Shown here: one piece after another, positions 2,131 to 50,548 of the stretch | How positions within the stretch are numbered: the first letter of the stretch is position 1 | Layout of the letters: each line of letters starts with the position of its first letter | DNA from: Candidatus Dormiibacterota bacterium | GTDB lineage: Bacteria; Chloroflexota; Dormibacteria; Aeolococcales; Aeolococcaceae | Direction of reading: 5' to 3' | Length of the DNA stretch: 64,000 nucleotides | Assembly (NCBI GenBank): GCA_963768105.1 | Contig: CAVYGR010000004.1 | Coordinates: 118,019 to 182,018, forward strand | Notes under the pieces: generated by a model | The model's database searches: none | What the model was told of the DNA's origin: nothing | The model's input: only the letters and a program-made list of their open reading frames with translations | Position numbers and translations under genes: made by a program

Positions 2131-2204
2131 TGGGCGGGCCAGGATTCGAACCTGGGACCGTGGGGTTATGAGCCCCCTGCTCTAACCGGCTGAGCTACCC
2201 GCCC
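2131..2204 (-). tRNA. tRNA-Met (anticodon CAT). As an elongator-type tRNA it could alternatively be tRNA-Ile2 (lysidine).
   Basis: The reverse complement reads GGGCGGGTAGCTCAGCCGGTTAGAGCAGGGGGCTCATAACCCCACGGTCCCAGGTTCGAATCCTGGCCCGCCCA. It has a 7-bp acceptor stem, D-arm, CAT anticodon loop, T-arm GGTTCGAATCC and discriminator A. CCA is not encoded. Confidence 0.85.
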
Positions 2205-2270
2205 TGTCGCGAACTCTAGCCGGAGACCACCCGCCCGCACGACACGGCCGATCTCAGCCACCATAGAATC

Positions 2271-2858
2271 ATGAACGAAATTCCTCCCGTGGTTGCCGAC
2301 AGCGACCGCCTTATCGATGCTGTCGCGCGGCTGGTCGATGGCGTCAGACCGGACCAATGGACCGCCTCGACACCGTGCCCCGACTGGAATGTGCGCCAGC
2401 TGCTCCAGCACGTGACCAACGGCAACGTCATCTTCGCGACCATCGCGACGGGAGAGCGGGCGCCCGGCCCGATCACGCCCGAGGAGCGCGCCGTCGACTG
2501 GCTGGGCGCCGACCCCGCCGCGGGATTCCGCGCCACCGGAAAGGTGATGCACGACGCCTTCATGACTCCCGGCTTCCTCGACGGCCGCCACGAAACCCCG
2601 GTCATGGGCGAGCAGAGTGGGACGACGATCGTGCACATGCGGATGAACGAGCTGCTCATTCACGGCTGGGACCTCGCCCGAGCGACCGCGCAGCCGGCCG
2701 ACCTCCCCGAGGATCTCGCCGAGGGTGCGCTGCGCATGTGGCAGACCCGGCTGGCCGACCGCCCCCGCCAGGGGATGCCGTTCGACGAGCCGACGCCGAT
2801 CGCCGACGGCGCCCCCGCCATCGACCGCCTCGCCGCGTACCTCGGACGGAAGCCCTGA
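2271..2858 (+). CDS. DinB/YfiT-like protein with a mycothiol-dependent maleylpyruvate isomerase N-terminal-type domain (TIGR03083/TIGR03086-like).
   Basis: The motifs DQW..STPCPDWNVRQLLQHV and IVHMRMNELLIHGWDLARA are typical of this actinobacterial family. Confidence 0.65.
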   Translation: MNEIPPVVADSDRLIDAVARLVDGVRPDQWTASTPCPDWNVRQLLQHVTNGNVIFATIATGERAPGPITPEERAVDWLGADPAAGFRATGKVMHDAFMTPGFLDGRHETPVMGEQSGTTIVHMRMNELLIHGWDLARATAQPADLPEDLAEGALRMWQTRLADRPRQGMPFDEPTPIADGAPAIDRLAAYLGRKP

Positions 2859-2881
2859 CCGCGCCGGCACCACGCCGCCCG

Positions 2882-3400
2882 GGGAAGGAGCAGTACTTCC
2901 TGCTCATCGCGCTCGCCGCGCGCACACGAGCTGACTGTCTCGGCCGGAGAGTTGGCGCGGTGATCACGCGTGATGCCCGCGTGCTCAGCACCGGCTACAA
3001 CGGCACGCCGTTTGGGATGCCCAACTGCTCCGAGGGTGGATGCCACCGCTGTTCGCGACGCGATGATGACGGCCTGCGTGGCGGCGCGTACGACATCTGC
3101 GTGTGCGTGCACGCCGAGCAGAACGCGCTGCTGACCGCCGCGCGCTTCGGTCAGCAGACGCTGGGCGCGTCGATGACGTCGACAACGCAACCCTGCTTCG
3201 GTTGCCTCAAGGAGATGCTCCAGGCAGGGATCACCGAGGTGCATTACCTCCATCCGTGGGATCCGATGGAGGCCTACGACGACCGGGCGCTGGTGCAGCA
3301 GTACGCCGCGCTGCGAGCGCGATTCGACAGCTTCTCGCAGGTCGGCGATCCGTCGATGGACACTCCGGATCTCTTCGGAGCCTTCATCGAGCAGCACTGA
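2882..3400 (+). CDS. dCMP (deoxycytidylate) deaminase of the ComEB type. The start codon is uncertain.
   Basis: EQYFLLIALAARTRADC, then the zinc-binding HAEQNAL and PCFGCLKEM motifs. No in-frame ATG, GTG or TTG lies between the upstream stop at 2856 and the domain. An SD-like gaaggag at 2884-2890 suggests a CTG at 2900 or an ATC at 2906, or else an undetected indel. Confidence 0.7.
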   Translation, partial: GKEQYFLLIALAARTRADCLGRRVGAVITRDARVLSTGYNGTPFGMPNCSEGGCHRCSRRDDDGLRGGAYDICVCVHAEQNALLTAARFGQQTLGASMTSTTQPCFGCLKEMLQAGITEVHYLHPWDPMEAYDDRALVQQYAALRARFDSFSQVGDPSMDTPDLFGAFIEQH

Positions 3401-3402
3401 GA

Positions 3403-5079
3403 CTACGCGCCGGTCTGGTCGACCAGCTGCACGCGGTCGCGCTCGATCGCCGTCGCGAGCGCGCTAACGCGCGACAGCGTGTCGATTTCGGCCGCCGATT
3501 TGTCCTGGCGCCAGCGGGCGATGCGCGGGAATCGCAGCGCGAAACCGGACCGGTGCCGCGCTGACACCTGCACCGCATCGAAGGCAACTTCGAGCACGAT
3601 GCGCGGCTCAACGGTGCGGTAGTGGCCGTGGTCGCTCACGGTGATCTCGAGCAGCAGCGCGGTCATCTCCGCGATCTCGGCATCGGTGAGACCCGTGTAG
3701 GCCTTGCCGATGGTTGCCAGGTCGCCGGTCTCGTCGACCCGCACCGCGAAGGTGACGTCGCTGAGCACGCCTCGCCGTTTGCCGTGCCCCCATTCGGCGC
3801 CGACCACCACGACGTCGAGCGTGTCCAGCGGCCGCTTCAGCTTGAGCCAGTTCAATCCTCGCCGCCCCGGGGTGTACGCCGACTCGGGTTGCTTGAGGAG
3901 GAGACCCTCGTTGAGGCGCGCGCGCGCGTCGGCGAAGCGCCGATCCACCTCCGCGGCTCCGCGGACGCGCTCGAGGTGGGCGAGCGCGAGTGGATGCGGC
4001 ACCGCGAGCGCCTCGAGGCGCTCGCGCCGCTCCCGCAACGGACGATCGAGCAGCACCTCGTCGCCGGCCACTAGCAGGTCCCAGGCGACGTAGATCACCG
4101 GCACCGCGGCCATCAGCGCGTCATCAGGCGCCACCCTTCCCAGCCGCGTCTGCAGTGCGTGGAAGGGCATCACTCGGCCGTCGTGGAAAGCGAGGATCTC
4201 GCCGTCGAGCATCACGTCCGCGCTGAGATGCTGCGCGCCGGCACGGACCTCGGGAAACTGCGCCGTGATGTTCTTGAGGTCGCGGCTGTACAGGGCAACC
4301 CGCGCGCCGCGACGGTGGAGCTGGCACCTGATGCCGTCATACTTGTCTTCAACCCACACGTCCTCGCCGAGGCGTGCGACCGCCTCGGCGGCGTCGGCGA
4401 CCGGCGTCGCGAGCATGGATCGCAGCGGCACGAACCAGTGCGGGGCCGCCTCCGCCAAACGGCCCGCGGCGGCGAGGAGGGCTGCCTCGCCGGCATCGCC
4501 GGTGAGCATCACCGCTCGGCTCACCGCCGCCTGATCGACGCCGAAGGCGGCGGCGATCGCTTCCTCCACCAGCCCTTCGCGCAACCCGATGCGCAGCTCG
4601 GCGGTGATGAGCTTGGCGACGTACCGGGCCTCGTCCGAGTTCGCGCGCTCGAGGAGGTTGCGGAGCAGCTGCTTGCGAGCCTGTACGCCGCGTGCGCCCG
4701 CGATCGCGGCAAAGGACCGGTCGAGGTCGCGGAGCGAAATCCACGCGGTGTCCCCTTGCTCCCGGCGCTCGAACAGCTCGCGGGTGACGTCACCAGTGTC
4801 GGAATGGCGGCGCCACGCCCGGCGAATCTCGGCGTCATCGGCACCACTGACCTCTTGCAACACCGACGAGAAGGCCGCCCCGCCCACATTCAACGTGCGC
4901 TCGTCGCCACCGGGAAAGATGGATCCGGTGAAGTAGCGCGCCGCCAGCGCCACCTCGTCCCCTTCGGTGCCACCGAGGAACTCTGCGAGCAGGCGCACCT
5001 TGCCGAGCTTCGACGGCGTGCTTGCGATGGCGTCTCCGGCGCGCGCCAACTCGGCCAGGGTGGTCACGCGGGCCATCAT
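3403..5079 (-). CDS. ATP-dependent DNA ligase (LigB/Cdc9-like, about 559 aa).
   Basis: KYDGIR adenylation motif (EDKYDGIRCQ), an N-terminal DNA-binding domain and a C-terminal OB-fold region. The tandem ATGATG at 5079/5076 matches the family N-terminus MMARVTTLAEL. The 220-codon upstream extension of the ORF is Arg-rich artefact. Confidence 0.85.
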   Translation of the reverse strand: MMARVTTLAELARAGDAIASTPSKLGKVRLLAEFLGGTEGDEVALAARYFTGSIFPGGDERTLNVGGAAFSSVLQEVSGADDAEIRRAWRRHSDTGDVTRELFERREQGDTAWISLRDLDRSFAAIAGARGVQARKQLLRNLLERANSDEARYVAKLITAELRIGLREGLVEEAIAAAFGVDQAAVSRAVMLTGDAGEAALLAAAGRLAEAAPHWFVPLRSMLATPVADAAEAVARLGEDVWVEDKYDGIRCQLHRRGARVALYSRDLKNITAQFPEVRAGAQHLSADVMLDGEILAFHDGRVMPFHALQTRLGRVAPDDALMAAVPVIYVAWDLLVAGDEVLLDRPLRERRERLEALAVPHPLALAHLERVRGAAEVDRRFADARARLNEGLLLKQPESAYTPGRRGLNWLKLKRPLDTLDVVVVGAEWGHGKRRGVLSDVTFAVRVDETGDLATIGKAYTGLTDAEIAEMTALLLEITVSDHGHYRTVEPRIVLEVAFDAVQVSARHRSGFALRFPRIARWRQDKSAAEIDTLSRVSALATAIERDRVQLVDQTGA

Positions 5080-5132
5080 GGCCCACCCGACCACGGCGTC
5101 AAGCGGAGAGCGACGGGCCGCGCGACGCTGCG

Positions 5133-6917
5133 CTAGCTGAAGATGGGTGGGAGGTGGGCAGCGCAGCCGGCGCAGGCCGCCGACCACCACAGGCTGCCGT
5201 CGCTCTGCTGCCAGAACGCCGCAACCGCATTGGTGTACCAGTTCACGACCGACACGCTCGACGCCGAGACCACTCTGTTGAGCAGCTCGGGCCCGATCCA
5301 ACCGTTGGCCGGCGCATAGATGGCCGAGGCGAGGCCGCCACTCGGGCGCTGCATGACCACGGTGACGGAGCTGGCGCCGGATCCGGACGCCACCGGCCGC
5401 CCCATGCTCACGGCCTTGTCGACCTCGACCTGGGCCGATCCACCGGACGAGGTGACCGGTGCCGCCCACACCGAGCCGGCCTGGGTACGCCAGACAGCGT
5501 CGAAGGTCGCCTGCCCGGCGATCGCCATTGTCGGGTCGCTTGCCAGGCCGCCGAGTCCGACCTTCTGCGCGCCGAACCATCCGTAGGACGCTCCGAGCTC
5601 GGTCCAGAGGTTGCCGGCTGCGTCGCGCCATGCGACCGCGACAGCGCCGCCCGACGCCGCGGCGGCGGGGTTGCCGGCGACCGCCCCTGTTGCCAATGGC
5701 GTGGGCCCAGACCAGGTGCCGGTGTAGCTGTCGGTCCACAGCGTGCCATCGGTGGCTTTCCAGAACACCTCCATGTCACCCGGGCCCTGGCTGATGGCTG
5801 CAGGCGCCGAGCCGGGGGCGAGCGTCCCGACGTCGAGGACGTGTGATGTCAGCCACGTCTGGGTGCCGTAGAGACCTGCCTGCGACTGGGCCTGCCAGAG
5901 CTGACCCGAGCTGTCCGCCCAGAAGGCGTCCACCTGGCCCGGCAGCGGCGACACCACGGCGGGAGTCGAGGCGGCGTTGCCGAGCGTGATGGCGACCTGC
6001 GGGTCCCACGTCCGGTTGCGATACGCCAGGTCCTGCAGGTTCGAAGCCGCATCCCGCCAGATGACGTCGATGTTGCCGGGCTGATCGGAGACGCTCTGTG
6101 GGGGTCCGGCAACGTTCGACGACGCCAGTTCGACTGGGGTCTGCTCGGTCTCGCGCAGCCACCCGATGATCGGGGTGTAGCCGTTGGCGGTCACCCTCGA
6201 CCCACTGAGCGGAAACCGGTCGGTCCCGGACGAGGTCGCGTTCTGCTCGACCACGTCGACATAACCGGGGCCGACATCGCGGACGATCGCGACGTGCCCC
6301 GATCCATCCCAGTAGCTGCTCAGCCAGCCCGGGGCGAAGATCATCAGGTCACCCTGCATCGGCGGGGTCCCAGCGCCGTTGGGTAACTGCACGAGCGGGA
6401 CCGGCAGGTTCGGTCCCGCCTGCCACATGGTGTTCGCCCCACCGACCGCGCCGTAGCCGTACCAGTTCGTCGGCTCACCCCAGGCGTAGAACGCGTACCG
6501 AATCGCGAGTTCCTCGCACTGGAATTCCGGGCCGAACTTGCACGCGTTCGGTGGCCCGCAGCCGACATTGCCAAACCCGTTGCCGTTGCCGTACGCGGTC
6601 AGGTTCGCGCAGTCGGTCACCCAGGTCGCCCACGCGCAGCCGCTGATCAGCGGCGCACCGTAGTTCCCGGTGCCGCCAACCTCGGCGGCAAGCATCCCGT
6701 GCGTGACCGTCGGCGCGGTCGGGGTGGCCGGCTCGGTCGTGGTCGTCGGACGGCGATGCGGGGATCCCGTGAGGGCGACCACGGCGCCGACGCTCCTGGC
6801 GACCATGGTGGAAGCCGGCCTATCCGCTGCCATTGTCGCCGTGCTGATGAGGGGGCTGACGCTTGCGGAGGCGGCCAGAAACCCGGCGAGCGCAAGCCGA
6901 TACAGGTTGGGATGCAT
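5133..6917 (-). CDS. Secreted CHAP/NlpC-P60-type peptidoglycan hydrolase fused to six W-containing beta-propeller-like repeats (PLL/tectonin-like, about 45-50 aa each).
   Basis: Signal peptide MHPNLYRLALAGFLAASA. CHAP core with the Cys (GCGPPNACKF..QCEEL) and the His (GSGHVAIV). Then six repeats of the pattern [IV]D.[FVAI]W....G.LW. Confidence 0.7.
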   Translation of the reverse strand: MHPNLYRLALAGFLAASASVSPLISTATMAADRPASTMVARSVGAVVALTGSPHRRPTTTTEPATPTAPTVTHGMLAAEVGGTGNYGAPLISGCAWATWVTDCANLTAYGNGNGFGNVGCGPPNACKFGPEFQCEELAIRYAFYAWGEPTNWYGYGAVGGANTMWQAGPNLPVPLVQLPNGAGTPPMQGDLMIFAPGWLSSYWDGSGHVAIVRDVGPGYVDVVEQNATSSGTDRFPLSGSRVTANGYTPIIGWLRETEQTPVELASSNVAGPPQSVSDQPGNIDVIWRDAASNLQDLAYRNRTWDPQVAITLGNAASTPAVVSPLPGQVDAFWADSSGQLWQAQSQAGLYGTQTWLTSHVLDVGTLAPGSAPAAISQGPGDMEVFWKATDGTLWTDSYTGTWSGPTPLATGAVAGNPAAAASGGAVAVAWRDAAGNLWTELGASYGWFGAQKVGLGGLASDPTMAIAGQATFDAVWRTQAGSVWAAPVTSSGGSAQVEVDKAVSMGRPVASGSGASSVTVVMQRPSGGLASAIYAPANGWIGPELLNRVVSASSVSVVNWYTNAVAAFWQQSDGSLWWSAACAGCAAHLPPIFS

Positions 6918-7021
6918 GCCCCCACACCCTGCCAGAGAGGATCTGACACTGCCGTCACACCGGCGCAACGATCGAGTTCGTCAGGCCATGACGGCGGGAG
7001 CCCCCGAGGAAGCCGGATTCC

Positions 7022-10018
7022 CTACTGGAACCAGCCCTCGACGTCGATGGCCGCGTTGACGCTGCCGACCGAGTTAAGCAGCAACACAGACCCGTTGGCG
7101 GTATCTAGCTGCACCACCACCAGGTTGGGGAGCACGGCTCCAGCGGCGAGGTTGAGGTCCGACGCGTTCGGGGGCTTGGTCAGGTTGGCGGGGTACGCGA
7201 CCAGGTAGGTGGCCTGAGTCGGCGCGATGGCCGCCAGATTGGCGATGATCCCCTGGATCACCGGGCCGGTGCCGGGAATGCCGCCCACGCCGGTTGCGTG
7301 GATCAGGCGGGCAGCGCTCACCCCAGCCCCGATTGCGCCGGTCGTGCAGCCCGCCGATGCCGTCCGGGTGTCGCAGATCCGGCTCGGGGCGATTGCCTGG
7401 TACTGGTACCCGGTCGGCGCCGTCGCTGCGCCAAACCACCCGTTTGCATCCAGGATGACGTCGATTCTCCCGACCGACGTGAACACGCACACAGCCGTGT
7501 GCGGCCCGCTCGGTCCCGGGCCCAATTGGACCATCACGCGGTTGGCCTCGACCGCTTTCGCCACCAGGTTCAGGGTGGAGATCTTGGGCGCAGGGCAGGT
7601 CCCTGTCGACGAGGTGGGGTAGACGCTGACGTAGGTCGGCGCGGTTGGTGTCACCCCGATCAGGTTGAGGACTGCGGCCGCTGCCGTGCCGTTTCCTGGG
7701 ATCGCGCTTCCGGTCACCGTGACCAGCATCGCGGACCCACCCACCAGTGCGCCGTGGGTCCGGCAGGCAGTCGGCGCCGACGTGCTGCGCGTGTCGCATA
7801 CGCGGACCGCGGTCATCGGGTGGAACTCGCCGGCTGTGGTCGACGCCACGGGAGGCGCGAAATAGCCCTCCACGTCCGCTACCACATTGACCGTCCCAGC
7901 GGCGTTGAAGATCTCCAGCATTCCGTTCTGGCCGAGGGTCGCGGTCACGAGGTTGGGGGTCACCGTACCGGGACCGAAGTTCAGATTCGACGCGTTCGGC
8001 TTTGGCGTACCCATCGGGTACACGGTGAGCAGGCTCCCGGCTGAGCCATTGACCTCGGTCACGTTGAGCACCACAGCAACGGCTCCGGTCGGTATGGGCG
8101 GCGTTCCCGCGCCGGTCACCTGAACAGGACGGGTGGTGGCGGGCCCGAACGGCGCGCCGCCGCGGGTGTCGAAGAGCCGGAACGGCGTGATGGGGACGTA
8201 GTCGGACAGCGGCACGTACAGGTACGCGGACCCGCTGGACGGGGAGCTCGACCCCAGCGTGTCGGTCGCGACGACGTGCACGATGCCGCCGGCCGAAGGG
8301 CCGGCCGGGGTGGTGAACGTGAACAAGTTGGGCGTCAAGCCGATGACCGTGACGCCGGTTCCGTTGATCGTCGCACTCGTCCCGGTCGCGAAGTCAGAAC
8401 CGGCGACGGTCACGAGCTGGCCTCCCCCCGCCGGTCCCGAAGACGGTGTCAACGATGCGATCGACGGCGCAGCGAATGTGTACCGGCCGATGAAGGTGTT
8501 CCAGCAGGTGTTCGCGGTCGTGCATGGCGCGACGGTGTTCCCATCGTTGTCCTCGGAGACCACCCATACGTCGGTGGGGTGCGCCGCATCCTGCACCGCG
8601 CCCGAGTAGTCCCCCAAGTGCAGGGCGGGCATCCACTTGGGCTGTAGAAGTTGGAGCTGGAGTCGAGCGTGGTGAAGGTGCTCCACGTGCTGCCACCCGT
8701 TATCGACGCGACCATGATCGATTCGAGCGTGGTGCTCGAGGAACTCGTCGAATGTGGTGATCACGTTGCCGGAGCTGTCCACAGCGAGCGCCGGATAGAA
8801 GAGGTAGGCGCCGCTGACCCCCTCGGGAGCGAGTTGTGTCGCTCCGGTCACGGTACCGGTGGATCCGGCGTTGACGCTGACGACGTTCACGCAGGACCGG
8901 GAGCCCGTGTCTCCGGTGGGCGTGCAGCCGGTGTTCCCCGTGGCCCACAGCACGTTGTTCAACCACACTGCGCTGAGGAAGCGATCGTCATTGACCTGAA
9001 GCGTGGCGGTTGTCCCGTTTTGTGGCGCCGACGGCACAACGCTGCTCCCTTTGGGTGTGGACACGGCGGTGCATGGTGGCGGCGAGACAACTCCGGTGTG
9101 AGGCGTGCCAACAAAGGCGATCACCGCGACGGCGTTGTTTGCCGGAGTAATCGTGCAATTCAAGTCGTTCGCGATCTCGTATTCGACATTGGTCGACGTG
9201 AGGGCCATGGCCGGCTGCGCGCCGAGCGGGCCGTCCGTAAACGCGACAGCGCTATTGACTCCCATCGTCCCGGCCGCGAGGTCGGAGCGTTGGATGATGT
9301 CGGTCTGACTCCGATACGGCGTCTCGTTGAGGCAACCGAGATAGTCCCAGGAGATCGTGACGACGGTGTTGGTCATCCCGACGGACAGATTCGCAGCCAC
9401 CGGCATGTCACCACTGCTGGCATCGGGCAACTGACCCAGGTTGAAGAAGCTGTTGGCCACTCGCCATGCCGTCGTCGGGTCCGCCCCTGACACCACGACC
9501 TGGATCTGACTCTGGTCGTTGGTACACGCCGCGCGAGCCGGGTTGTATTGCAGCACCGCCAGGATAAACCGCCCCGAAGCCGGGTCGTACACCACGTGCG
9601 GGTATTTCACGGCAAAGCCCGTGGGAGTCCCGACGAGCGTACGGATGGCTTTGGTGGTGACGAGGGCTCCCGTGCGGCTGTAAACAAAGAGAGCGCTGTT
9701 CACCGCCTCGACGACGTACGTCGAGCCCACGGCGATGCTCGGATCAGCGGGTGTGGTAGCGCCTCCGGATCCCGCCGCCGCGATCGCCGCCTGTTCGCCG
9801 GCACCCGCAAACCCTGCAAGCTGGGAGGCCGAGGATCCCAGCGCGGTCGCGGCGGTACGCGCTGTAATCGAGCGCGGAGCCGCGTGACTCGGCGACCGCT
9901 GTGAGGTTGCTGTGAGTCCTGCAGGGTGTGACAACGCGGACGCCGACGCGGGACTCGCCGTCAATGCGACGGACAGTGCGGCAACGGAGATGAGCGCGAG
10001 AGAGCAACTGCGGCGCAC
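7022..10018 (-). CDS. Large secreted multidomain protein, paralog A (998 codons). It has a signal peptide, a ~550-aa N-terminal domain of unknown fold, an IPT/TIG domain and three tandem ~130-aa repeats ending DVEGWFQ. It contains a compensating frameshift pair.
   Basis: About 45% identity to the 45154..48396 product over the full length. IPT/TIG motif SLTPSSGPAGGGQLVTVAGSDF. Repeats of the type YVP..PFR..DTR...LLTVYP...PNASNLN....V.DVEGYF. The segment 8611-8746 is read out of frame, as shown by comparison with the paralog. Confidence 0.7.
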   Translation of the reverse strand: MRRSCSLALISVAALSVALTASPASASALSHPAGLTATSQRSPSHAAPRSITARTAATALGSSASQLAGFAGAGEQAAIAAAGSGGATTPADPSIAVGSTYVVEAVNSALFVYSRTGALVTTKAIRTLVGTPTGFAVKYPHVVYDPASGRFILAVLQYNPARAACTNDQSQIQVVVSGADPTTAWRVANSFFNLGQLPDASSGDMPVAANLSVGMTNTVVTISWDYLGCLNETPYRSQTDIIQRSDLAAGTMGVNSAVAFTDGPLGAQPAMALTSTNVEYEIANDLNCTITPANNAVAVIAFVGTPHTGVVSPPPCTAVSTPKGSSVVPSAPQNGTTATLQVNDDRFLSAVWLNNVLWATGNTGCTPTGDTGSRSCVNVVSVNAGSTGTVTGATQLAPEGVSGAYLFYPALAVDSSGNVITTFDEFLEHHARIDHGRVDNGWQHVEHLHHARLQLQLLQPKWMPALHLGDYSGAVQDAAHPTDVWVVSEDNDGNTVAPCTTANTCWNTFIGRYTFAAPSIASLTPSSGPAGGGQLVTVAGSDFATGTSATINGTGVTVIGLTPNLFTFTTPAGPSAGGIVHVVATDTLGSSSPSSGSAYLYVPLSDYVPITPFRLFDTRGGAPFGPATTRPVQVTGAGTPPIPTGAVAVVLNVTEVNGSAGSLLTVYPMGTPKPNASNLNFGPGTVTPNLVTATLGQNGMLEIFNAAGTVNVVADVEGYFAPPVASTTAGEFHPMTAVRVCDTRSTSAPTACRTHGALVGGSAMLVTVTGSAIPGNGTAAAAVLNLIGVTPTAPTYVSVYPTSSTGTCPAPKISTLNLVAKAVEANRVMVQLGPGPSGPHTAVCVFTSVGRIDVILDANGWFGAATAPTGYQYQAIAPSRICDTRTASAGCTTGAIGAGVSAARLIHATGVGGIPGTGPVIQGIIANLAAIAPTQATYLVAYPANLTKPPNASDLNLAAGAVLPNLVVVQLDTANGSVLLLNSVGSVNAAIDVEGWFQ

Positions 10019-10211
10019 ATTTCGATTCTAGAAGCCAATCGCCGCAGTGACACATCCCCGTAACACGGTCACCGAGTCGTGACATCGGGGCCGTCTCGAC
10101 GCCTGCGGACGCATGGCGATCGCCAGACCACTGTCCGGGCGTCAGGCAGCGACGATGGCGTATAAATTGCTCGCCGGGCAACCGCCGGCACACCCCATGC
10201 AGGAGATCCAC

Positions 10212-10304
10212 ATGACCGACACATACGGCTGGAAGCCCCTCTCCCTTGCCGACGACGAAGAGGACGAAGACGGCGACGAGGAAGGCGAGGACGACGACGA
10301 GTAG
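10212..10304 (+). CDS. Candidate 30-codon acidic micro-ORF (MTDTYGWKPLSLADDEEDEDGDEEGEDDDE) with a strong Shine-Dalgarno sequence.
   Basis: aggag at 10201-10205 lies 6 nt upstream of the ATG at 10212. The acidic run is encoded by a GA-rich repeat. A -10-like tataaa lies at 10162. The ORF overlaps the annotated start of the HD gene in a different frame. Confidence 0.3.
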   Translation: MTDTYGWKPLSLADDEEDEDGDEEGEDDDE

Positions 10305-11652
10305 CTCGCTGCAGACGGCGGAACGTTTTCGCCAGGTCAATCTCATCGCCGATCCGCTCTATGGCTACATAGAGATCACCAAGGACCGGCCCGGCGAGGC
10401 GAGCGAGCGCCAGCTCCTCGACACGGTCTGGCTGCAGCGCCTGCGGCGGGTCCACCAGCTCCAGTCGGCGTGGTGGGTCTTCCCCAGCGCTGAGCACTCG
10501 CGCTTCACGCACCTCCTGGGAGCGATGCATCTCGCGAGCCTGTTCGCGCGTCGTGTGGACGGATCCTTGCGCGCCTCGTTTTCCGACGCACCGTCGCCGG
10601 CGCTCGTCGAGGAGACCCTGCGCATTGCGGGTCTGCTGCACGACGTCGGCCACGGTCCGTTCGGACATTTCTTCGATCACGAGGTGCTCGAACAGTGGAG
10701 CCTCGACCACGAGGTGATCGGCCGTCACCTGGTGACCCACCAGCTCGCCGACATCATCGGATCGCTGCGCGCGAGTCCCGGTGGACGCTTCGCGTCCGGC
10801 GAGCAGATCGACCCGATGTGGGTGGCCTGGGTGATGGCTGACGCCGACATCGACGGCTACTCGCCACCAGGGTGGCTGCACGCGCTGAAGCCAATCCTCT
10901 GCGGTCCCGCGACCGTCGACAACCTCGATTACGTCCCGCGCGACGCGTACATGTGCGGCATCAGCCTGGGGGCGGTGGAGGTGCAGCGGCTCATCCACTA
11001 CACCTTCATCAGCGGCGACAGCGTCGTGCTCCACGCGCATGCGGCGGGCGCGCTGGAGATGTTCCTCGCCTCGCGCCTCTACATGTATCTGCAGGTGTAC
11101 CACCACCGAACCGGCCGGCGGTTCGACCTGTCGATGCGCGAGATCTTCGCGGACACCATCAGCCAGCTGTTGCACGGCAATCCGCTCGAGCATCTCGACG
11201 AGTACGAGCAATTGAACGACTGGTCGGTGCTGGTCGCGGTGCAGCGCTGGCTTGGCGAGGCACCGGGAACGGAGCGGCGTCGCCTCGCCGAGGCCTGGGC
11301 GCGGATCGCGGCTCGCGACCTGCCGTGGCATCTCGCCTACGAGAGCGTCGCCCACAAGGGCATGGACACGTCCACGCTGCAGGCGCAACTCGACGCGCAG
11401 CTCGAGTCAAGGGCGCTGAGCGCGCGGGTCGAGGTCGATGTGGCCATCGCCCGTATCGCGCCGCAGAACCCGATGACCGACGACGGCATGGTCAGGATCT
11501 ACGACCCGCTCAACGACACCATCGAGGCCGCTCGAGCCGCGGAGCTGGTGGCGCGGTTGCCACAGCACAACCAGGTGATCCGCGTGTTCACCGACGATGT
11601 GTCGGCGCTCCGAACCGTGCGTGACGCCGTCAAGGCGGTGATCGCCGGCTGA
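10246..11652 (+). CDS. HD-domain phosphohydrolase of the SAMHD1/dGTPase-like dNTP triphosphohydrolase family. The start is uncertain.
   Basis: IADPLYGYIEI...LQRLRRVHQL...FPSAEHSRFTHLLGAMHLA...LLHDVGHGPFGH. The only in-frame canonical start is TTG at 10246, inside the acidic micro-ORF. The K/R/T-rich first 20 residues are probably an artefact of reading the GA repeat in a different frame. Confidence 0.75.
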   Translation: MPTTKRTKTATRKARTTTSSSLQTAERFRQVNLIADPLYGYIEITKDRPGEASERQLLDTVWLQRLRRVHQLQSAWWVFPSAEHSRFTHLLGAMHLASLFARRVDGSLRASFSDAPSPALVEETLRIAGLLHDVGHGPFGHFFDHEVLEQWSLDHEVIGRHLVTHQLADIIGSLRASPGGRFASGEQIDPMWVAWVMADADIDGYSPPGWLHALKPILCGPATVDNLDYVPRDAYMCGISLGAVEVQRLIHYTFISGDSVVLHAHAAGALEMFLASRLYMYLQVYHHRTGRRFDLSMREIFADTISQLLHGNPLEHLDEYEQLNDWSVLVAVQRWLGEAPGTERRRLAEAWARIAARDLPWHLAYESVAHKGMDTSTLQAQLDAQLESRALSARVEVDVAIARIAPQNPMTDDGMVRIYDPLNDTIEAARAAELVARLPQHNQVIRVFTDDVSALRTVRDAVKAVIAG

Positions 11653-12138
11653 TCAGACGAGCCGGCGCTCGATCCACTCGACCGCCTCCGCCGCGGTCGA
11701 GACGCGATGCACCTGCGGGTCGGCTCGAGGTTCGCCCGGACGGGTGACGCTCCAACTGTTGAGCGCAACCACCGGCTTGCCGAGCACGAGCGCGTAGGCC
11801 ATCTCGCTGAGCGTCCCGTACCCTCCGCCGATCGCGATCATCGCGTCGCTGGAGCGCACGATCAGCGCGTTGCGCAGGTGACCCAGGCCGGTGGCAATCG
11901 GCATCGTCACACCCGGCGCAGCCCCCACGGGATCATCGCCGGGGAGCAGGCCGACGCAGGTGCCACCAGCCGCAGACGCCGCGTCGGCGACTGCGGTCGC
12001 GACACCCTGTCCGCCGCCGCACACGATGATGAATCCGCGTTGCGCGAGCAGACGGCCAACCTCCGCCGAAGCCTGGCGATCGTCGTCGGTGGCTTGCGAC
12101 GCGCCGCACACCGCCACCATCCGCGGACGCGCAGCCAA
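11653..12138 (-). CDS. LOG-family / TIGR00725 Rossmann-fold protein (LOG = cytokinin riboside 5'-monophosphate phosphoribohydrolase-like).
   Basis: MVAVCGAS...IVCGGGQGVATAVADAA...GYGTLSEMAYAL... is a typical LOG/TIGR00725 layout. Confidence 0.7.
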   Translation of the reverse strand: MAARPRMVAVCGASQATDDDRQASAEVGRLLAQRGFIIVCGGGQGVATAVADAASAAGGTCVGLLPGDDPVGAAPGVTMPIATGLGHLRNALIVRSSDAMIAIGGGYGTLSEMAYALVLGKPVVALNSWSVTRPGEPRADPQVHRVSTAAEAVEWIERRLV

Positions 12139-12156
12139 TAATGCGCCCGGCCGTCG

Positions 12157-13266
12157 TCAGGGGGCGACGGGCAGACGCGGCCCCGACGGCATCACGGGGC
12201 CGGCGGCGGCGCTGAAGTTCTCCTGGCTCACCTGAGCGGCGATGTGGGACGCGACATCGCGAAACACCTCGCCGATCGGGCTCGACGGTGCGGCAGCCAT
12301 GATCGGGCGGCCGTCGCCGTCCGCGCCGCGAATGCGTGGATCGAGCGGCACCGCTCCCAGGAAGGGCAACTCGTAGCGGGCGGCGAGGTCGCGCCCGCCG
12401 CCGGAGCCGAAGATGTCGGTTCGCTCGTTGCAGTGCGGGCAGATGAAACCGCTCATGTTCTCGACCACGCCGAGGACCGGGACATTGAGCTTGCGGAACA
12501 TCTCGATGCCCCGACTCACATCCGCAAGCGACACGTCCTGCGGGGTGGTGCAGATGACCGCGCCGGTCATGGGCATGCTCTGCGCGAGGCTGAGCTGCAC
12601 GTCGCCGGTGCCGGGCGGAAGATCGATGACGAGATAGTCGAGCTCACCCCACGTGACCTCGTAAAGGAACTCGCGCAACGCCTTGGCGAGCATCGGACCG
12701 CGCCAGATCACCGGTTGTCCGGGATCGAGGATGGTGCCGAAGGAGACCACCTTCAGACCGTGCGCCTCGAGCGGCTGCATCTTCCCGTCCGGACCGGCGT
12801 GGGGTCGCTCGCGAATCCCGAGCATGATCGGGACGTTGGGGCCGTAGACGTCAGCATCGAGCAGACCGACACGAGCACCGGCGAGCCGCAGCGCGATCGC
12901 GACATTGACCGCGACCGTGGTCTTGCCCACACCGCCCTTACCCGCGCTGATCGCGATCGCGTTGCGCACGCCGGGGATCTCCTGGCGGCCGGGCAGGCCT
13001 CGCGTGGTGCTCACGTCGGCGTCCCAGCGGATCTCGACGCGAGTGATCGACGGCACCACACCGATGACCGCAGCCTCGATGTCCTGACGGATGCGATCCT
13101 TGAGCGGGCACGCGGGCGTGGTGAGCACGACACGAAGTGACGCGACTCCACCGTCGATCGCGAGGTCGCGCAACATGCCGAGCTGCAGCATCGGCTTGTG
13201 CAACTCGGGATCGATCACGGTCGCGAGCGCACGTTCGAGGGCGTCGAGCGCCGCTGGGTCACTCAT
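12157..13266 (-). CDS. mrp: Mrp/ApbC/NBP35-family Fe-S cluster carrier ATPase with an N-terminal DUF59-like domain.
   Basis: Walker A GKGGVGKTTVAVNVA. CPHC Fe-S ligand motif (GFICPHCNERTDIFG). N-terminal MSDPAALDALERALATVIDPEL. ATG at 13266. Confidence 0.85.
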   Translation of the reverse strand: MSDPAALDALERALATVIDPELHKPMLQLGMLRDLAIDGGVASLRVVLTTPACPLKDRIRQDIEAAVIGVVPSITRVEIRWDADVSTTRGLPGRQEIPGVRNAIAISAGKGGVGKTTVAVNVAIALRLAGARVGLLDADVYGPNVPIMLGIRERPHAGPDGKMQPLEAHGLKVVSFGTILDPGQPVIWRGPMLAKALREFLYEVTWGELDYLVIDLPPGTGDVQLSLAQSMPMTGAVICTTPQDVSLADVSRGIEMFRKLNVPVLGVVENMSGFICPHCNERTDIFGSGGGRDLAARYELPFLGAVPLDPRIRGADGDGRPIMAAAPSSPIGEVFRDVASHIAAQVSQENFSAAAGPVMPSGPRLPVAP

Positions 13267-13354
13267 CTCCAAATGAGTATACCCAGCCGCTCCACAGCGA
13301 AAGCTCAACTCGGCGAAGCGCTGGATTTGATGCGCTCTCTACAATGCGGCCCGA

Positions 13355-14779
13355 ATGCTCGATCGCCGCGTGATTCGTCTCCTCGAGGGTCAGGTTGCGG
13401 CCTCACATGTCTACACCCGCCCCGCGGATCTCGCCGCCTACGCGTATGACGCGTGGGGAGCGACAGGCGAACGTCATCTCCCCGATGCGGTGGTCTTCCC
13501 CGCATCGACCGAGGAGGTGGCGGGCGTGGTCAGCGTCTGCGCAGTCTCCGGGGTACCGATCGTCCCCCGCGGCGCCGGCACTGGCTACGCGGCCGGCGCG
13601 TCGCCGTCGCACGGCGGCGTCATCCTGAGCCTCGCCCGCCTCAACCGGGTGCTCGGCGTCGAGTCCGAGGCGATGCGACTGCACGCCCAGGCCGGGGCCA
13701 TCACCGCCGGGATCCACGCACATGCGGCGGCCTCGGGCCTGTTCTTCCCGCCGGATCCGGGCTCGTCCACCACCTGCACCATCGGCGGCAACGTCGCCTG
13801 CAACGCCGCCGGCCCGCACACGCTTCGCTACGGGGTCACCGCCGACTTCGTCGCCGGTCTGACCGCGGTCCTGTCCGACGGCTCGGTGGTGCGCGTCGGC
13901 GAGGGCGGCGACACCTCGGCGTCGGGGCTCCTCTCGCTGCTGGTGGGCTCCGAGGGAACCCTCGGGGTGATCACCGAGGTCCTGCTGCGCCTGATCCCCG
14001 CGCCGAGGGCGAGGGCCACCCTTGCCGCCACCTTCACCGGCATGGATCGCGCCGCCGCGGCCGTCGCCGGGATCAGCGACGCCGGCATCGTGCCCTCGGC
14101 CCTGGAATTCCTCGATGCCGCGGCTCTCGACGCCGTGCGTCGGGCGGGTGGCGGCAATGTCGGCGGTGACGCCGCGGCGCTCCTGATCGTGGAGCTCGAG
14201 GGCGACATCGCCGCCGTCGGAGGAGACACCGATGCGGTGTCCGGGGCGATCACACGGGCGGGCGCCTCGCAGCTGCAGCGGGCCACCGAGCCGGGCCAGG
14301 CCGAGCGGCTGTGGGCGGCACGCAAGGCGGTGAGCGCGGCGGTCGCCAAGGTGCAGATCGGCAAGGTGAACGAGGACGTCGTCGTCCCCCGCGACCGCGT
14401 CGCCGAGCTGATCGCCCGCACCCGCGAGCTGGGCACCAAATTCGAGTTGCAGGTGGTGAACTTCGGACACCTCGGCGACGGCAACGTGCACGCGACCTTC
14501 CTCATCGACCCGCGCCTCGAAGGCCAGCGAGCTCGTGCCGACGCGGCCGCCGGGGAGCTCTTCGAGACCGTGCTGAGCATGGGCGGCTCGCTCTCAGGGG
14601 AGCACGGCGTCGGCGCCGCCAAGCTCGAGTACGTCGAACGTCAGCTCGGAGCGGGGACGGTGGAGCTGATGCGACGGATCAAGGCGGCCCTGGATCCGCA
14701 CGACGTGCTCAACCCCGGTAAGAAGATCCCGCCGCGTCAGTCTTCCGCGTCGAGCACCGCCAGCAACGAGGCTGCGTAG
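13355..14779 (+). CDS. FAD-linked oxidase (GlcD / D-lactate dehydrogenase family).
   Basis: An FAD-binding PCMH-type domain (VVFPASTEEVAGVVS..IVPRGAGTGYAAGASP) and a C-terminal GEHGVG motif. TACAAT lies 9 nt before the ATG, so the transcript is probably leaderless. Confidence 0.8.
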   Translation: MLDRRVIRLLEGQVAASHVYTRPADLAAYAYDAWGATGERHLPDAVVFPASTEEVAGVVSVCAVSGVPIVPRGAGTGYAAGASPSHGGVILSLARLNRVLGVESEAMRLHAQAGAITAGIHAHAAASGLFFPPDPGSSTTCTIGGNVACNAAGPHTLRYGVTADFVAGLTAVLSDGSVVRVGEGGDTSASGLLSLLVGSEGTLGVITEVLLRLIPAPRARATLAATFTGMDRAAAAVAGISDAGIVPSALEFLDAAALDAVRRAGGGNVGGDAAALLIVELEGDIAAVGGDTDAVSGAITRAGASQLQRATEPGQAERLWAARKAVSAAVAKVQIGKVNEDVVVPRDRVAELIARTRELGTKFELQVVNFGHLGDGNVHATFLIDPRLEGQRARADAAAGELFETVLSMGGSLSGEHGVGAAKLEYVERQLGAGTVELMRRIKAALDPHDVLNPGKKIPPRQSSASSTASNEAA

Positions 14780-15084
14780 TCGGTCTCATCGATACGCCGG
14801 GCCAGCTCGCGGCCGTCGTCGACGGGTAGCTCCATCGACGCGTCGTAGACGAAGCTGTACACGTTCGGCAGCGTCCAGTCGCCGAAACCGAGCGACGCCA
14901 GGATGCCGGCAAGGCGCGGCTCCTGCTCATCGGCCGCGAACGTCTCGCTGGCCGCTCGATACAGGGAGTTGAGGTTGCGATACTCCGTCTCGTACTCCTC
15001 GATGAGAGCCGGATCAGCGTCTTCGTCCCGCAGACGAGCGAGCGTCCGGCGCAACGACTGGATCTCCAGCTGATACTCGTCCAC
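14737..15084 (-). CDS. Hypothetical acidic protein (115 aa).
   Basis: Clean non-repetitive ORF immediately downstream of, and co-directional with, the VIT-family gene. Its 3' end overlaps the glcD-like gene convergently. No motif recognised. Confidence 0.45.
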   Translation of the reverse strand: MDEYQLEIQSLRRTLARLRDEDADPALIEEYETEYRNLNSLYRAASETFAADEQEPRLAGILASLGFGDWTLPNVYSFVYDASMELPVDDGRELARRIDETDYAASLLAVLDAED

Positions 15085-15109
15085 CCTCTCCCGAGTGTAG
15101 ATGACGCAG

Positions 15110-15868
15110 TCAGCCGGTCCGCACGTTGACGAGGTTGCCGACCAGGTGTCCGACCCCGAACGCGACGCCCGCCGCGACCGTGGCGAAGGCTAACTGGCGG
15201 AGCGCGGAGTGGACCCGCGAGCGCCCGGTGAAGATCGCGACCGTCCAGCCGACCGCGAGCACGGACACGGCTCCAAGGGCGATCGAGAGCAGGGCCGCGG
15301 TGGTCCCGCTGACGAAGAACCAGGGGAGGAGCGGGATGACCGCGCCGATGGCAAACATGACGAACGAGGATCCGGCTGCCTGCCATGGGTTCCCGGTCTT
15401 GCCGGGGCGCAACCCGAGCTCTTCCCGAGCGTGAACCTCGAGTGCAACGTCGGGGTTCCTCATGATCGCCTCGGCAATGCGGCGCGCATCGGCTTCCTCA
15501 ACTCCACGGAGCCGGTAGACGGCGGCCAGCTCCCGGGTCTCGTCCTCGGGGTGGCGCTCCAGCTCACGCCGCTCGATTTCCAGCTCGCGCTGCAGGAGCT
15601 CGGACTGCGCCGCCATCGACACGTACTCGCCCGCGGCCATCGAGAACGCCCCGGCGACGAGACCCGCCAGTCCGGCAAGCAGCACCACGGAGGGAAGGGG
15701 ATTGGCACCGGCAACGCCGAGGATCAGCGAGATGTTGGTCAGCAGGCCGTCGCTGATCCCGAAGACTGCGGCACGCGCGGCGCCGCCCTGCAGGTCGCGG
15801 TGATGGGACCGCTCGTGCGGCATGCGATGTTCGCCCGCCCCGCCGACCGGGGCAACCCTCTGGGCCAT
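15110..15868 (-). CDS. VIT1/CCC1-family (DUF125) iron/manganese transporter.
   Basis: N-terminal ferritin-like region with E..E motifs (ELLQRELEIERRELERHPEDE), then five predicted TM helices. Start is probably MAQRVAP at 15868. Confidence 0.7.
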   Translation of the reverse strand: MAQRVAPVGGAGEHRMPHERSHHRDLQGGAARAAVFGISDGLLTNISLILGVAGANPLPSVVLLAGLAGLVAGAFSMAAGEYVSMAAQSELLQRELEIERRELERHPEDETRELAAVYRLRGVEEADARRIAEAIMRNPDVALEVHAREELGLRPGKTGNPWQAAGSSFVMFAIGAVIPLLPWFFVSGTTAALLSIALGAVSVLAVGWTVAIFTGRSRVHSALRQLAFATVAAGVAFGVGHLVGNLVNVRTG

Positions 15869-25421: not shown

Positions 25422-26366
25422 TTGGGGAGCAGGCCTGGTACCCGGGCGCCGGATCGTGTCAGTGCATTAGCGAGGGAAGCAACTATCGCGACGCACGTCC
25501 ATCGACTGGTGCGACACCTTTGGGTGCTCGCCGTGGCTGCACTGCTTGTCGTGCTTCTCGCGCGTCCGACCGCAGTCCCCGCCGCGCCGATGCTGCGAAA
25601 CCTCGCCGCCATCCAGATCAACGCAGTGGTCGAGAACACCGCGACGGTCACGGCCCTCGCGGTGCGACCGCCGCGGACCATCGTCGTCCAGCCCGGCCAG
25701 TCGCTCGCGACCGTCGCGGCCGCGTACGGCGTCACCGCATCGACAATCCGCTGGGGCAATCAGCTCACCCCGTCGATGGCACCCGCAGCGGGGTCGACGC
25801 TGCTCATTCCTCCCGGGCCGGGAGCCCTCGTCGAAGTGCTCCCCGGCGAGACCCCCACGCGATTCGCCGCCCGGCTGCATCTCGACGCCGCGGTCATCCT
25901 CGAGTACAACGCCCTCAGCAGCAACGCGCCGATGACCGGCGGCTCATTTCTCCAGGTACCACTCGCGCGCGCGCCGACGGGGTCGCTCATCGCCTCGTAC
26001 TTCGTCGATGCGCAAGACGGGGTGCCCGGTGTCCCCGCAACCGCGCCACTCGTCGACAACTTTCCGTATGGACAGTGCACCTACTACATCGCGAGCCGGC
26101 GAGCCGTCACCTGGGGAGGCAACGCGGGCGAGTGGTGGTGGGCCGCACGCAGTCACCGCCCCGAGGGAGAGGTTCCCGTGCAGGGAGCGATCGTCGTCTT
26201 CAATATCGGATGGGTCGGTCATGTCGCCTACGTCGAGCACGTGAACCTCGACGGAACCTTCATCGTCTCCGAGATGAACTACCGAGCCGGCGGCGGAGGA
26301 TGGGGCCGCGTCGACTACCGCACCATCAGCGCTTCCGATCCCGCCATTCTTGGATATATCTACTGA
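25422..26366 (+). CDS. Secreted LysM-LysM-CHAP peptidoglycan hydrolase.
   Basis: A signal/TM region (LWVLAVAALLVVLLA), two LysM repeats (IVVQPGQSLATVAAAYGV..., VEVLPGETPTRFAARLHL...) and a C-terminal CHAP domain (YGQCTYYIASRR...GWVGHVAYVEHV). Confidence 0.8.
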   Translation: MGSRPGTRAPDRVSALAREATIATHVHRLVRHLWVLAVAALLVVLLARPTAVPAAPMLRNLAAIQINAVVENTATVTALAVRPPRTIVVQPGQSLATVAAAYGVTASTIRWGNQLTPSMAPAAGSTLLIPPGPGALVEVLPGETPTRFAARLHLDAAVILEYNALSSNAPMTGGSFLQVPLARAPTGSLIASYFVDAQDGVPGVPATAPLVDNFPYGQCTYYIASRRAVTWGGNAGEWWWAARSHRPEGEVPVQGAIVVFNIGWVGHVAYVEHVNLDGTFIVSEMNYRAGGGGWGRVDYRTISASDPAILGYIY

Positions 26367-27272: not shown

Positions 27273-27971
27273 TCACCCTGAAAAGCGGTACCCGATCCCC
27301 GGCACGGAGTGGATGTAGGTTGGTTTCTCCGCGTCCGGCTCGATCTTGCGACGCAGCCGGTAGACGTGCGCGTCGACGGTACGGGTCTCGATCTCGACCT
27401 CGTAGCCCCACACGCGGCGGAGCAACTCCCCGCGGCTCATCACCTGACCCGGGCGCGATGCGAGCAACGCGAGCAGGTTGAACTCGGTGAGTGTGAGCAT
27501 CACCTCCTCGCCATCGCGGAACACCTGGCGGCGACCGAGGTCGATGGTGAGCCCCGGGAACTCGAACCGGTCACGGGGCTGCTCCTGCGCTGAGATCTCA
27601 CTGCGCCGCAGGTGCGCGCCGATGCGCGCCATCAACTCGCGCACCTCGAACGGCTTGGTCACGTAATCGTCGGCACCCAGCTCGAGCCCGACGACGACGT
27701 CGATGGTGTCGCTCTTCGCCGTCAGCATGATGATCGGCACACGCGCACCCTCGGCGCGCAGGCGCCGGCACACGTCGAGACCGCTCATGCCCGGCAGGTT
27801 GACATCGAGGATGATCAGGTCGGGATTCTGTTCGCGGGCGAGGTTGAGTCCCTCGACGCCGGTTGCGGCCTCGATGAGCGTGTGGTTCTGTGCGCTCGTG
27901 GCAAGGCGAACCACCTCGCGACTCGGCGGGTCGTCCTCGACGATGAGGATGGTTTTCCCGGCTCCGCTCAT
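27273..27971 (-). CDS. OmpR-family two-component response regulator (REC plus winged helix).
   Basis: LIVEDDP...D (phospho-acceptor region LIILDVNLPGMSG), C-terminal trans_reg_C with the TVDAHVYRLRRKIE motif. Its ATG overlaps the HK stop (TGATG). Confidence 0.85.
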   Translation of the reverse strand: MSGAGKTILIVEDDPPSREVVRLATSAQNHTLIEAATGVEGLNLAREQNPDLIILDVNLPGMSGLDVCRRLRAEGARVPIIMLTAKSDTIDVVVGLELGADDYVTKPFEVRELMARIGAHLRRSEISAQEQPRDRFEFPGLTIDLGRRQVFRDGEEVMLTLTEFNLLALLASRPGQVMSRGELLRRVWGYEVEIETRTVDAHVYRLRRKIEPDAEKPTYIHSVPGIGYRFSG

Positions 27972-30680: not shown

Positions 30681-30682
30681 CG

Positions 30683-31456: not shown

Positions 31457-31542
31457 GAGCGCCTCCGTGATTGGTGTCCGGGATCGAAACTCTACCGCAC
31501 CTACCGTCCGAATTCCCGGAACTGGGCCGCCGATCGAGCGGA

Positions 31543-34104: not shown

Positions 34105-34197
34105 GTCTCAGCCATGGCTCAGGGAAAGCGCGCCGGCGACGGCCGAGAATGCGGGCACCGCCACGATAGAACAAGTCACAACCAAAGGAGCATGAGG

Positions 34198-38276: not shown

Positions 38277-38328
38277 GGCGGGGCAGGATAGCCAGCCCGG
38301 CGTGCCCGCCGCACCGAGAGCGGCGACA

Positions 38329-43385: not shown

Positions 43386-43552
43386 GGTCTCGATCGAACC
43401 TCGACCGGTGACACCGGAGCGCTTCTGCCGTGCCGTGTCTGGCAACTGCATCCATCCCACTTGGCCGGCACCAGCTCGGCGTTGGCGCGTTTGACCTCTT
43501 TCAGCGACCGATCATACCGCCTGCTCATGGGGGAGCGAACCCGCACAGGCCG

Positions 43553-45142: not shown

Positions 45143-45153
45143 CCATGCCACAG

Positions 45154-48396: not shown

Positions 48397-48519
48397 TCCT
48401 GCCTCCGCGGGTGATGGTGCCGGCGTTGGAGCAGCTGCTCGGATGGTGGCCGCCGCCAAGAGCCCGCCGCCGCAGTCTAAGGGGCGTTGTCGAATTTGAG
48501 ACGGATCACGCGATCTTCG

Positions 48520-50401: not shown

Positions 50402-50548
50402 TGACCGAACGGGCGGCAGGTCGCCGAATCCATCCTCAGGTGCATGGACAGCAGATGGTAGGCGCGGCGCGCGCGATCCGCCGCCACTTAGTATGCTCGA
50501 ACTCAGGCGGGCCGCCAGTCAACGACATCCGAATTGGAGATTCCCAGC

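Follow-up and report, generated by a model that had tools for sequence, protein, structure and literature searches.

Paired exported proteins of Dormibacterota with a beta-propeller, an IPT/TIG domain and a triple jelly-roll: candidates for wall-associated surface proteins

Two long genes on one contig of a Candidatus Dormiibacterota bacterium (assembly GCA_963768105.1, contig CAVYGR010000004.1) raise the question of what kind of protein they encode and where it acts. Both lie within a stretch of 64,000 nucleotides (nt), positions 118,019 to 182,018 of the forward strand, which is referred to below as the window; we call them copy A and copy B. Dormibacterota are uncultured bacteria abundant in soils and are a sister group of Chloroflexota. 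To our knowledge, nothing is known about their cell envelope, and our literature searches found nothing on it or on this protein family.

The reading we favour, at somewhat less than even confidence, treats A and B as exported surface proteins that are stabilised by disulfides and associated with the wall; in them, a C-terminal unit of three jelly-roll domains would serve as the wall-targeting module. We infer this role from the export signals, the paired cysteines, the acidic, lysine-poor composition, the triplication of the C-terminal repeat, the gene order around the two genes and the short gaps to their neighbours.

Architecture of the two copies

The two copies and their parts are as follows; coordinates are those of the window, and residue numbers (aa) of copy B refer to its longest open reading frame (ORF), of 1101 aa.

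7022-10018, minus strand: copy A (A-type paralogue), 998 aa; signal peptide aa 1-28, propeller about aa 75-517, TIG domain aa 518-592, repeats aa 603-998
7025-8212, minus strand: triple jelly-roll of copy A; repeats aa 603-722, 724-864 and 865-998
45154-48396, minus strand: copy B (B-type paralogue), 1080 aa from the ATG at 48396
aa 22-53 and up to aa ~139 of copy B, minus strand: signal peptide, and a linker of ~90 aa rich in Pro, Ser and Thr
46624-48042, minus strand: beta-propeller of copy B, aa 140-612, probably six to seven blades, with paired Cys (structure prediction and Foldseek)
46399-46623, minus strand: IPT/TIG domain of copy B, aa 613-687 (Pfam PF01833, E 2.3e-10)
45157-46362, minus strand: triple jelly-roll of copy B; repeats aa 700-818, 823-962 and 963-1101, that is, repeat 1 at 46362-45982, repeat 2 at 45981-45574 and repeat 3 at 45573-45157

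The repeats were delimited with a hidden Markov model (HMM) built from those of copy B. The ORF of copy B is open upstream to a TTG at 48459 (45154-48459, 1101 aa), and a start at the ATG makes its signal peptide N-terminal.

The copies are 35.1 kb apart, both on the minus strand, and BLASTP aligns them at 47% identity over 1018 columns (749 bits), hence end to end, as a reading made from sequence only had proposed. They share a signal peptide, a beta-propeller of ~470 aa, an IPT/TIG domain and three jelly-roll repeats of ~130 aa. Some details of that sequence-only reading were adjusted. The three repeats and the quoted motifs are present, but not every repeat ends in DVEG[WY]F: the middle one ends in DANGW[YF]G and copy B in DLEGWFQ. 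The N-terminal domain, given as 550 aa, is indeed unnamed, but its structured part covers ~470 aa, and in copy B the linker precedes it.

The IPT/TIG domain is the sole Pfam match in both proteins (A 518-592, 42.5 bits; B 613-687, 40.8 bits; gathering score 20.9). Beyond it, scans of A, B and their parts against Pfam, NCBIfam and PHROGs gave only a sub-threshold match to DUF6223 (E 0.031) and a spurious one to FlgE. Searches of the Protein Data Bank (PDB) by sequence, with single proteins and with a family profile, gave only matches of the IPT part, to the IPT domains of plexins and MET (E 3e-9), and a marginal sialidase match. The architecture thus falls outside curated families, as had been suspected, and the combination of a known glycoside hydrolase with a known carbohydrate-binding module (CBM) did not emerge from the HMM and profile searches.

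Both proteins carry Sec-type signal peptides. The composition is acidic (pI 4.6), with ~0.6% Lys, and the mature protein of ~100 kDa is rich in Ser and Thr; copy B has 18 Cys, many of them as closely spaced pairs. No LPXTG sortase signal, lipobox or C-terminal membrane anchor was found in A or B, and covalent sorting, lipoprotein attachment and C-terminal membrane anchoring were dropped from consideration as their signals are absent from both sequences. Ahead of copy A there is a sigma-70-like site (GTGTCA-17-TAGAAT, 10025-10053, minus strand), which ends 7 nt before the GTG start and would imply a leaderless or near-leaderless mRNA. This promoter evidence is weak: the region has just two sites of this kind, where chance would give 0.5.

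Two unnamed domain families with recognisable folds

The N-terminal domain of copy B (aa 140-612) was modelled with AlphaFold2 from 90 homologues. The model is all-beta with ~29 strands (predicted local distance difference test score, pLDDT, 90.2; predicted template modelling score, pTM, 0.92), and the domain is probably a propeller of six or seven blades closed by its N-terminal strand. Foldseek comparison of the model with PDB returned propellers only, with E values of 1e-7 to 1e-5 and template modelling (TM) scores of 0.4-0.5: sialidases, GH43, the BT_0996 glycoside hydrolase, henipavirus G heads, Sema domains, CylK and lectins. For the predicted structure such matches establish the fold class, not family membership.

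Two known systems are close enough for comparison. The six-bladed sialidases of families GH33, GH34 and GH83 are among the best structural neighbours (7mhu, 6mnj and 1kit/6eks; E 1e-6 to 1e-5), and the sialidase of V. cholerae accounts for the marginal profile match (E 0.005). However, a search with regular expressions found neither a canonical Asp-box (S-x-D-x-G-x-T-W) nor an [FYW]R[IVL]P FRIP motif in A or B; Pfam BNR, BNR_2 and Sialidase match neither A nor B at E <= 1, nor any of 62 diverse family members at E <= 1e-3; TM scores are 0.38-0.51; and the strand count suggests up to seven blades. The second system, Sema-PSI-IPT of plexins and MET, shares a propeller followed directly by IPT/TIG, with the IPT profile match and with Sema among the fold matches, but A and B have neither a PSI domain nor a Sema HMM match, TM scores are 0.37-0.40, and the resemblance most likely concerns the general architecture only.

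Three Arg (in DPR, DDR and RWGDY), one Tyr and one Glu are conserved in the propeller, with an R-x3-Y spacing unlike that of sialidases. Numbered within the domain, conserved positions are R81, D149, R299, R422, Y426 and E444. The conserved polar motifs PPD, DPR..YD, DQPxLG, DDRF, YPA..D..G and RWGDYSG..DP persist as far as an archaeal member of the family, which suggests a defined binding or active site, for which they are the candidate residues; the propeller could be catalytic or could only bind.

The propeller family is very large. A profile of ten diverse members collected 18,721 clusters (at 50% identity) at E <= 1e-3 and 4,340 at E <= 1e-30. The members that carry a name are each a 'hypothetical protein' from Chloroflexota or Acidimicrobiales metagenome-assembled genomes (MAGs), and none of the 62 sampled representatives has a Pfam model across the propeller. 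Partner domains in this sample are TIG (17/62), other Ig-like domains and FG-GAP, and in one protein (1/62) CWB2, a known wall anchor, stands in the place of the triple jelly-roll. The propeller is also found without the latter; the two modules recombine independently.

The repeats, for which structure prediction had been advised, were modelled as a three-repeat unit (B 690-1101) and are all-beta jelly-rolls (pLDDT 90.1, pTM 0.87). Since this pTM spans all three repeats, a fixed packing of the unit is predicted. A BFVD search with the triple module found only tandem jelly-rolls of a generic kind (picornavirus P1, a C1q-like protein and the Sulfolobus turreted icosahedral virus, STIV) and nothing that would tie it specifically to phage receptor-binding proteins or endolysins. 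No CBM model matched A or B, and SLH (PF00395) and CW_binding_2 (PF04122) were likewise unmatched in the Pfam scan.

The number of repeats is strictly conserved. By the repeat HMM, 95 of 96 proteins contain exactly three, as do 118 of 120 further proteins, the other two of which look like truncated 2x3 arrangements. In total, the module was found in at least 1376 proteins; among the best 120 of these it stands alone in 41, C-terminally in 51 and N-terminally in 27. It is fused to six peptidoglycan-active catalytic families, in confirmed positions: CHAP, GH25, YkuD with PG_binding_1, sortase, Rv2525c-like and Amidase_2. Other partners are CAP/YkwD (13 proteins), S8 protease, cupredoxin, RHS and many Ig-like domains. 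All named sources are of monoderm type (Dormibacterota, Chloroflexota, Acidimicrobiia, Streptomyces, Curtobacterium and Arthrobacter), and in cultured Streptomyces, Curtobacterium, Aeromicrobium and Arthrobacter the proteins are annotated as hypothetical; Streptomyces homologues are encoded in NZ_CP108424.1 and NZ_CP108158.1. Both parts that had been left unassigned have recognisable folds and belong to very large unnamed families.

These folds also fit another explanation, in which A and B are secreted enzymes that degrade or bind polysaccharides for nutrition, with a sialidase-like or lyase-like propeller and CBM-type jelly-rolls. The best neighbours of the propeller include sialidases, GH43 and BT_0996, and many of its polar residues are conserved (DPR..YD, DQPxLG, DDRF, RWGDYSG). 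The repeats are ~130-aa all-beta sandwiches, and their top PDB matches are CBM22/35, discoidin F5/8C and Cry/Vip CBM-like domains. Among the proteins with the module, one bears the name chitodextrinase and one the name cutinase. However, no glycoside hydrolase, polysaccharide lyase or CBM model matches A or B, which also have no Asp-box and no FRIP motif; the TM scores of the propeller's fold matches are only 0.4-0.5, with E values in the range also seen for Sema domains and viral attachment heads; those of the three-repeat model are weak (TM <= 0.24); a strict rule of three is atypical of CBM arrays; and the conserved neighbours described below are biosynthetic or wall-remodelling genes rather than genes of sugar uptake or catabolism. 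We therefore regard a nutritional enzyme as quite unlikely.

Orthologous groups and conserved neighbourhoods

The nearest proteins come from Candidatus Dormibacterota MAGs and form ~90 full-length clusters, whose sole labels are 'IPT/TIG domain-containing' and 'hypothetical'. Scanning the GTDB species representatives gave 79 family loci, which were grouped by TBLASTN with A, B and their neighbour genes. The neighbours in the window are:

5133-6968, minus strand: CHAP secreted protein with C-terminal Trp-rich repeats of ~48 aa (Pfam CHAP E 4.8e-6; weak endolysin PHROG match)
42656-43523, minus strand: GT2 glycosyltransferase; frameshift at ~43350
43553-44570, minus strand: rfbB, dTDP-glucose 4,6-dehydratase; frameshift at ~44322
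44572-45151, minus strand: rfbC, dTDP-4-dehydrorhamnose 3,5-epimerase, starting 2 nt past the stop of copy B; frameshift at ~44960
48520-50431, minus strand: coiled-coil and double GT2 protein, directly upstream of copy B; frameshift at ~49800, one 637-aa ORF in another MAG (locus L005)
50534-51232, plus strand: Wzm, ABC-2 permease, conserved beside B-type genes
51613-52671, plus strand: Wzt ATPase with a Wzt_C carbohydrate-binding domain, conserved beside B-type genes
53566-54543, minus strand: methyltransferase dependent on S-adenosylmethionine, beside Wzm/Wzt; possibly a glycan end-capping enzyme

Some 35 loci are B-type (50-67% identical to B) and share one gene order: Wzt and Wzm, encoded on the opposite strand, are followed by the coiled-coil-GT2 gene, B, rfbC, rfbB and GT2, with EamA and ABC-F beyond. 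About 22 loci are A-type (50-61% identical to A), with Mrp/(LOG) and an HD protein before the gene and CHAP and an ATP-dependent DNA ligase after it. Other paralogue types have neither context (L003/L012/L049, L025/L030/L037/L050 and L059). The placement of copy A directly upstream of the CHAP gene, and of copy B upstream of rfbC, rfbB and GT2 near Wzm/Wzt, had been described for the window; this cell-wall context proved to be kept across both groups of genomes. The CHAP gene lies 53 nt downstream of copy A, and no terminator-like site follows copy A, before the CHAP gene, or copy B.

A B-type and an A-type gene occur on one contig, on the same strand and in the same order, 43-62 kb apart, in at least ten other Dormibacterota genomes. 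This recurrence on single contigs points to an old duplication that became fixed where the chromosome is stable and, judging from the sequence comparison, the A/B duplication predates the divergence of the sampled Dormibacterota. A recent, lineage-specific duplication, for which a phylogenetic check had been proposed, is ruled out by the recurring pair together with A's own orthologues (up to 61% identity); both orthologous groups span the sampled Dormibacterota. The recurring order also bears out the earlier view that the copies do not mark an island boundary: the 35 kb between them hold housekeeping genes, and no mobile-element domains were seen there.

The biosynthetic surroundings of copy B suggest a further possibility, namely that B-type proteins (perhaps A-type ones too) are S-layer or major surface glycoproteins, the flanking Wzm/Wzt, methyltransferase, GT2 and rml genes being a glycosylation cluster similar to slg, with a poly-rhamnose chain on the Pro/Ser/Thr-rich linker or on the Thr/Ser-rich propeller. 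The size, export, acidity, low Lys content and Ser/Thr richness of the mature protein would suit this; so would the Wzt_C domain and the neighbouring methyltransferase, as in end-capped rhamnan export, and the retention of the glycan-locus context in ~35 genomes. The order of the genes, with wzm/wzt upstream, glycosyltransferases in the centre and rml downstream, is that of slg clusters, and in Geobacillus the S-layer genes sgsE and sgtA are close to such clusters, whose wzm/wzt, glycosyltransferase and rml genes serve a rhamnose-containing glycan (PMC2943079). But known S-layer genes are monocistronic with strong promoters (PMC2943079), whereas copy B is set inside the biosynthetic array, 2 nt from rfbC. 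There is also no sequence or domain similarity to SgsE or SgtA, no gene for an O-oligosaccharyltransferase (WsaB-like) was seen in the window, and the genomes carry several paralogue types. Eighteen Cys would, moreover, be an unusual count for an S-layer protein. An S-layer protein in this sense appears unlikely to us, if not negligibly so.

According to a third alternative, A and B are generic adhesins or receptor-like surface proteins with a propeller and IPT head, and the synteny merely reflects slow genome rearrangement. Family-wide, the propeller's partners are mostly adhesin-type domains (Ig-like, FG-GAP, cadherin, PKD), and the matches by fold and by IPT sequence include Sema, plexin and MET. 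Moreover, the entire B...A region of 26-62 kb keeps its order, so that the local linkage of any one gene does not count as evidence of its own. Against this, the gap between B and rfbC is just 2 nt, and the association with rml survives in distant lineages despite different surroundings: in three deeper loci (L062-L064) a single family gene lies beside rmlA-D, in L063 and L064 with a CHAP-like gene adjacent as well. We consider this alternative rather improbable.

In the same three loci (Dormibacteria/Chloroflexia-labelled, about 2200-15600) the family gene is found among several ORFs of 740-906 aa, at least some with signal-peptide-like N-termini, and the neighbourhood may be a larger surface-protein gene cluster. 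A few family loci (L031, L047, L054, also L062 and L065) are on contigs labelled Candidatus Saccharimonadales, Acidiferrales, Binatia or Solibacter. The first three are A-type loci with neighbours 80-95% identical to those of the Dormibacterota window (HD 89-93%, Mrp 93-95%); the oddly labelled contigs are probably mis-binned or mislabelled.

Several genes of the window are broken. In copy A the listed residues ~426-469 (8611-8743, minus strand) bear no likeness to copy B and are out of frame, since one nt has been gained in a TT run (~8742) and one lost from a G run (~8611-8615). Removing one T and adding one G at these places gives the +1-frame reading FDESSSTTLESIMVASITGGSTWSTFTTLDSSSNFYSPSGCPPCTWGDYSGA, which agrees with copy B and with six A-type orthologues, and the +1-frame fragment matches the propeller HMM (E 5.6e-6). 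The rfbC and rfbB genes and both GT2 genes are each split over two frames at the positions listed above, whereas in the short-read MAG locus L005 each of these four genes is one uninterrupted ORF. The presence of frameshifts in at least four other window genes, and their absence from the short-read MAG, points to homopolymer indel errors of a long-read assembly and not to pseudogenisation. Decay of copy A was rejected on the same grounds: both indels are in homopolymers and their repair restores a conserved reading. Elsewhere in the window, the HATPase_c domain of a GAF histidine kinase is split between 28455-29702 and 27971-28804, and the subunits of an electron transfer flavoprotein (29699-31750) are probably split across frames.

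Further observations concern other genes of the window. The C-terminal ~330 aa of the CHAP protein next to copy A consist of six or seven of the Trp-rich ~48-aa repeats (pattern vD.fW...g.LW) with no Pfam match, which in sequence look like a lectin-type propeller. A secreted peptidoglycan hydrolase with LysM and CHAP (314 aa, 25422-26366, plus strand) is encoded between the paralogues and overlaps the end of an opposite-strand asparaginase II ORF. A 740-aa protein (37867-40089, plus strand) matches the full DUF6909 model (E 8e-205), just upstream of the ABC-F/EamA genes bordering the B-type locus. At 32770-34746 two opposite-strand ORFs of 444 aa (minus) and 579 aa (plus) overlap; both have high GC content at third codon positions, and neither has a Pfam match.

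Proposed wall association and its meaning

In the reading we favour, A and B would be three-part machines, with the beta-propeller as head, the Ig-like IPT/TIG domain as spacer and the three-jelly-roll unit as a putative non-covalent anchor that binds a wall glycopolymer or peptidoglycan. The B-type gene would be co-transcribed with the rhamnose-glycan genes (GT2, B, rfbC, rfbB and GT2, beside Wzm/Wzt), and its product probably binds, processes or carries the rhamnose polymer. The A-type gene would be co-transcribed with that of the CHAP peptidoglycan hydrolase, and the two products probably remodel the wall jointly.

Two anchors known from Firmicutes offer a precedent. SLH-domain trimers attach surface proteins to pyruvylated secondary cell-wall polymers (PMC6081394), and in Clostridioides difficile the Cwp proteins use triple CWB2 repeats (PF04122) to bind the PSII polymer (PMC4973711). 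Like SLH, the jelly-roll module is an obligate three-repeat unit at either end of varied extracellular proteins of monoderm bacteria, wall hydrolases included; unlike it, the repeats are ~130-aa all-beta domains and not ~55-aa helical ones, no Pfam SLH match was obtained and no csaB-like gene was seen, which makes this an analogy only. As with CWB2, where the repeats form a pseudo-trimer, three tandem repeats would anchor proteins with varied heads, and one propeller-family member has CWB2 in place of the triple unit. The folds differ, however, with no sequence similarity, and binding is demonstrated for CWB2 and predicted here.

Several observations weigh against wall anchoring. The fold matches of the three-repeat unit are generic (TM ~0.2), and CBMs that bind substrates have folds of this kind as well. 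Fusions with a peptidoglycan-active partner are in the minority; CAP, TIG or no partner prevail. The set of 120 proteins was drawn with a three-repeat profile and is biased towards three or more repeats, and co-transcription is read from gene spacing alone. No gene for an LCP ligase or a pyruvyltransferase was seen within the window. Finally, TBLASTN did not find the module in 50,697 phage records, and no phage endolysin or tail protein bears it.

The folds themselves are ordinary and the logic of head, stalk and anchor is known; it is the two sequence families that are unnamed in Pfam, NCBIfam and RefSeq annotation. With its strict count of three repeats and its wall-enzyme partners, the jelly-roll unit can credibly be seen as a wall-targeting module of a new kind. 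A bolder version, which we hold possible yet doubtful, is that the triple jelly-roll represents an unrecognised class of non-covalent wall anchors across Actinomycetota, Chloroflexota and Dormibacterota, equivalent in function to SLH and CWB2, that the B-type protein is the main wall protein of Dormibacterota, or one similar to an S-layer, which binds or carries the rhamnose polymer produced by the surrounding genes, and that the propeller is a major surface-display head in soil Terrabacteria.

In summary, our analysis picks out two candidate surface-protein genes with phylum-wide synteny, tied to a rhamnose-glycan pathway in one case and to a peptidoglycan hydrolase in the other, and defines two large domain families that the databases leave unnamed. 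Because Streptomyces, Curtobacterium and Arthrobacter that have the module are in culture, bench tests of the wall-anchor hypothesis would not require cultures of Dormibacterota. If true, the hypothesis would bring the types of triple-repeat wall anchor to three and aid the annotation of well over a thousand hypothetical proteins.

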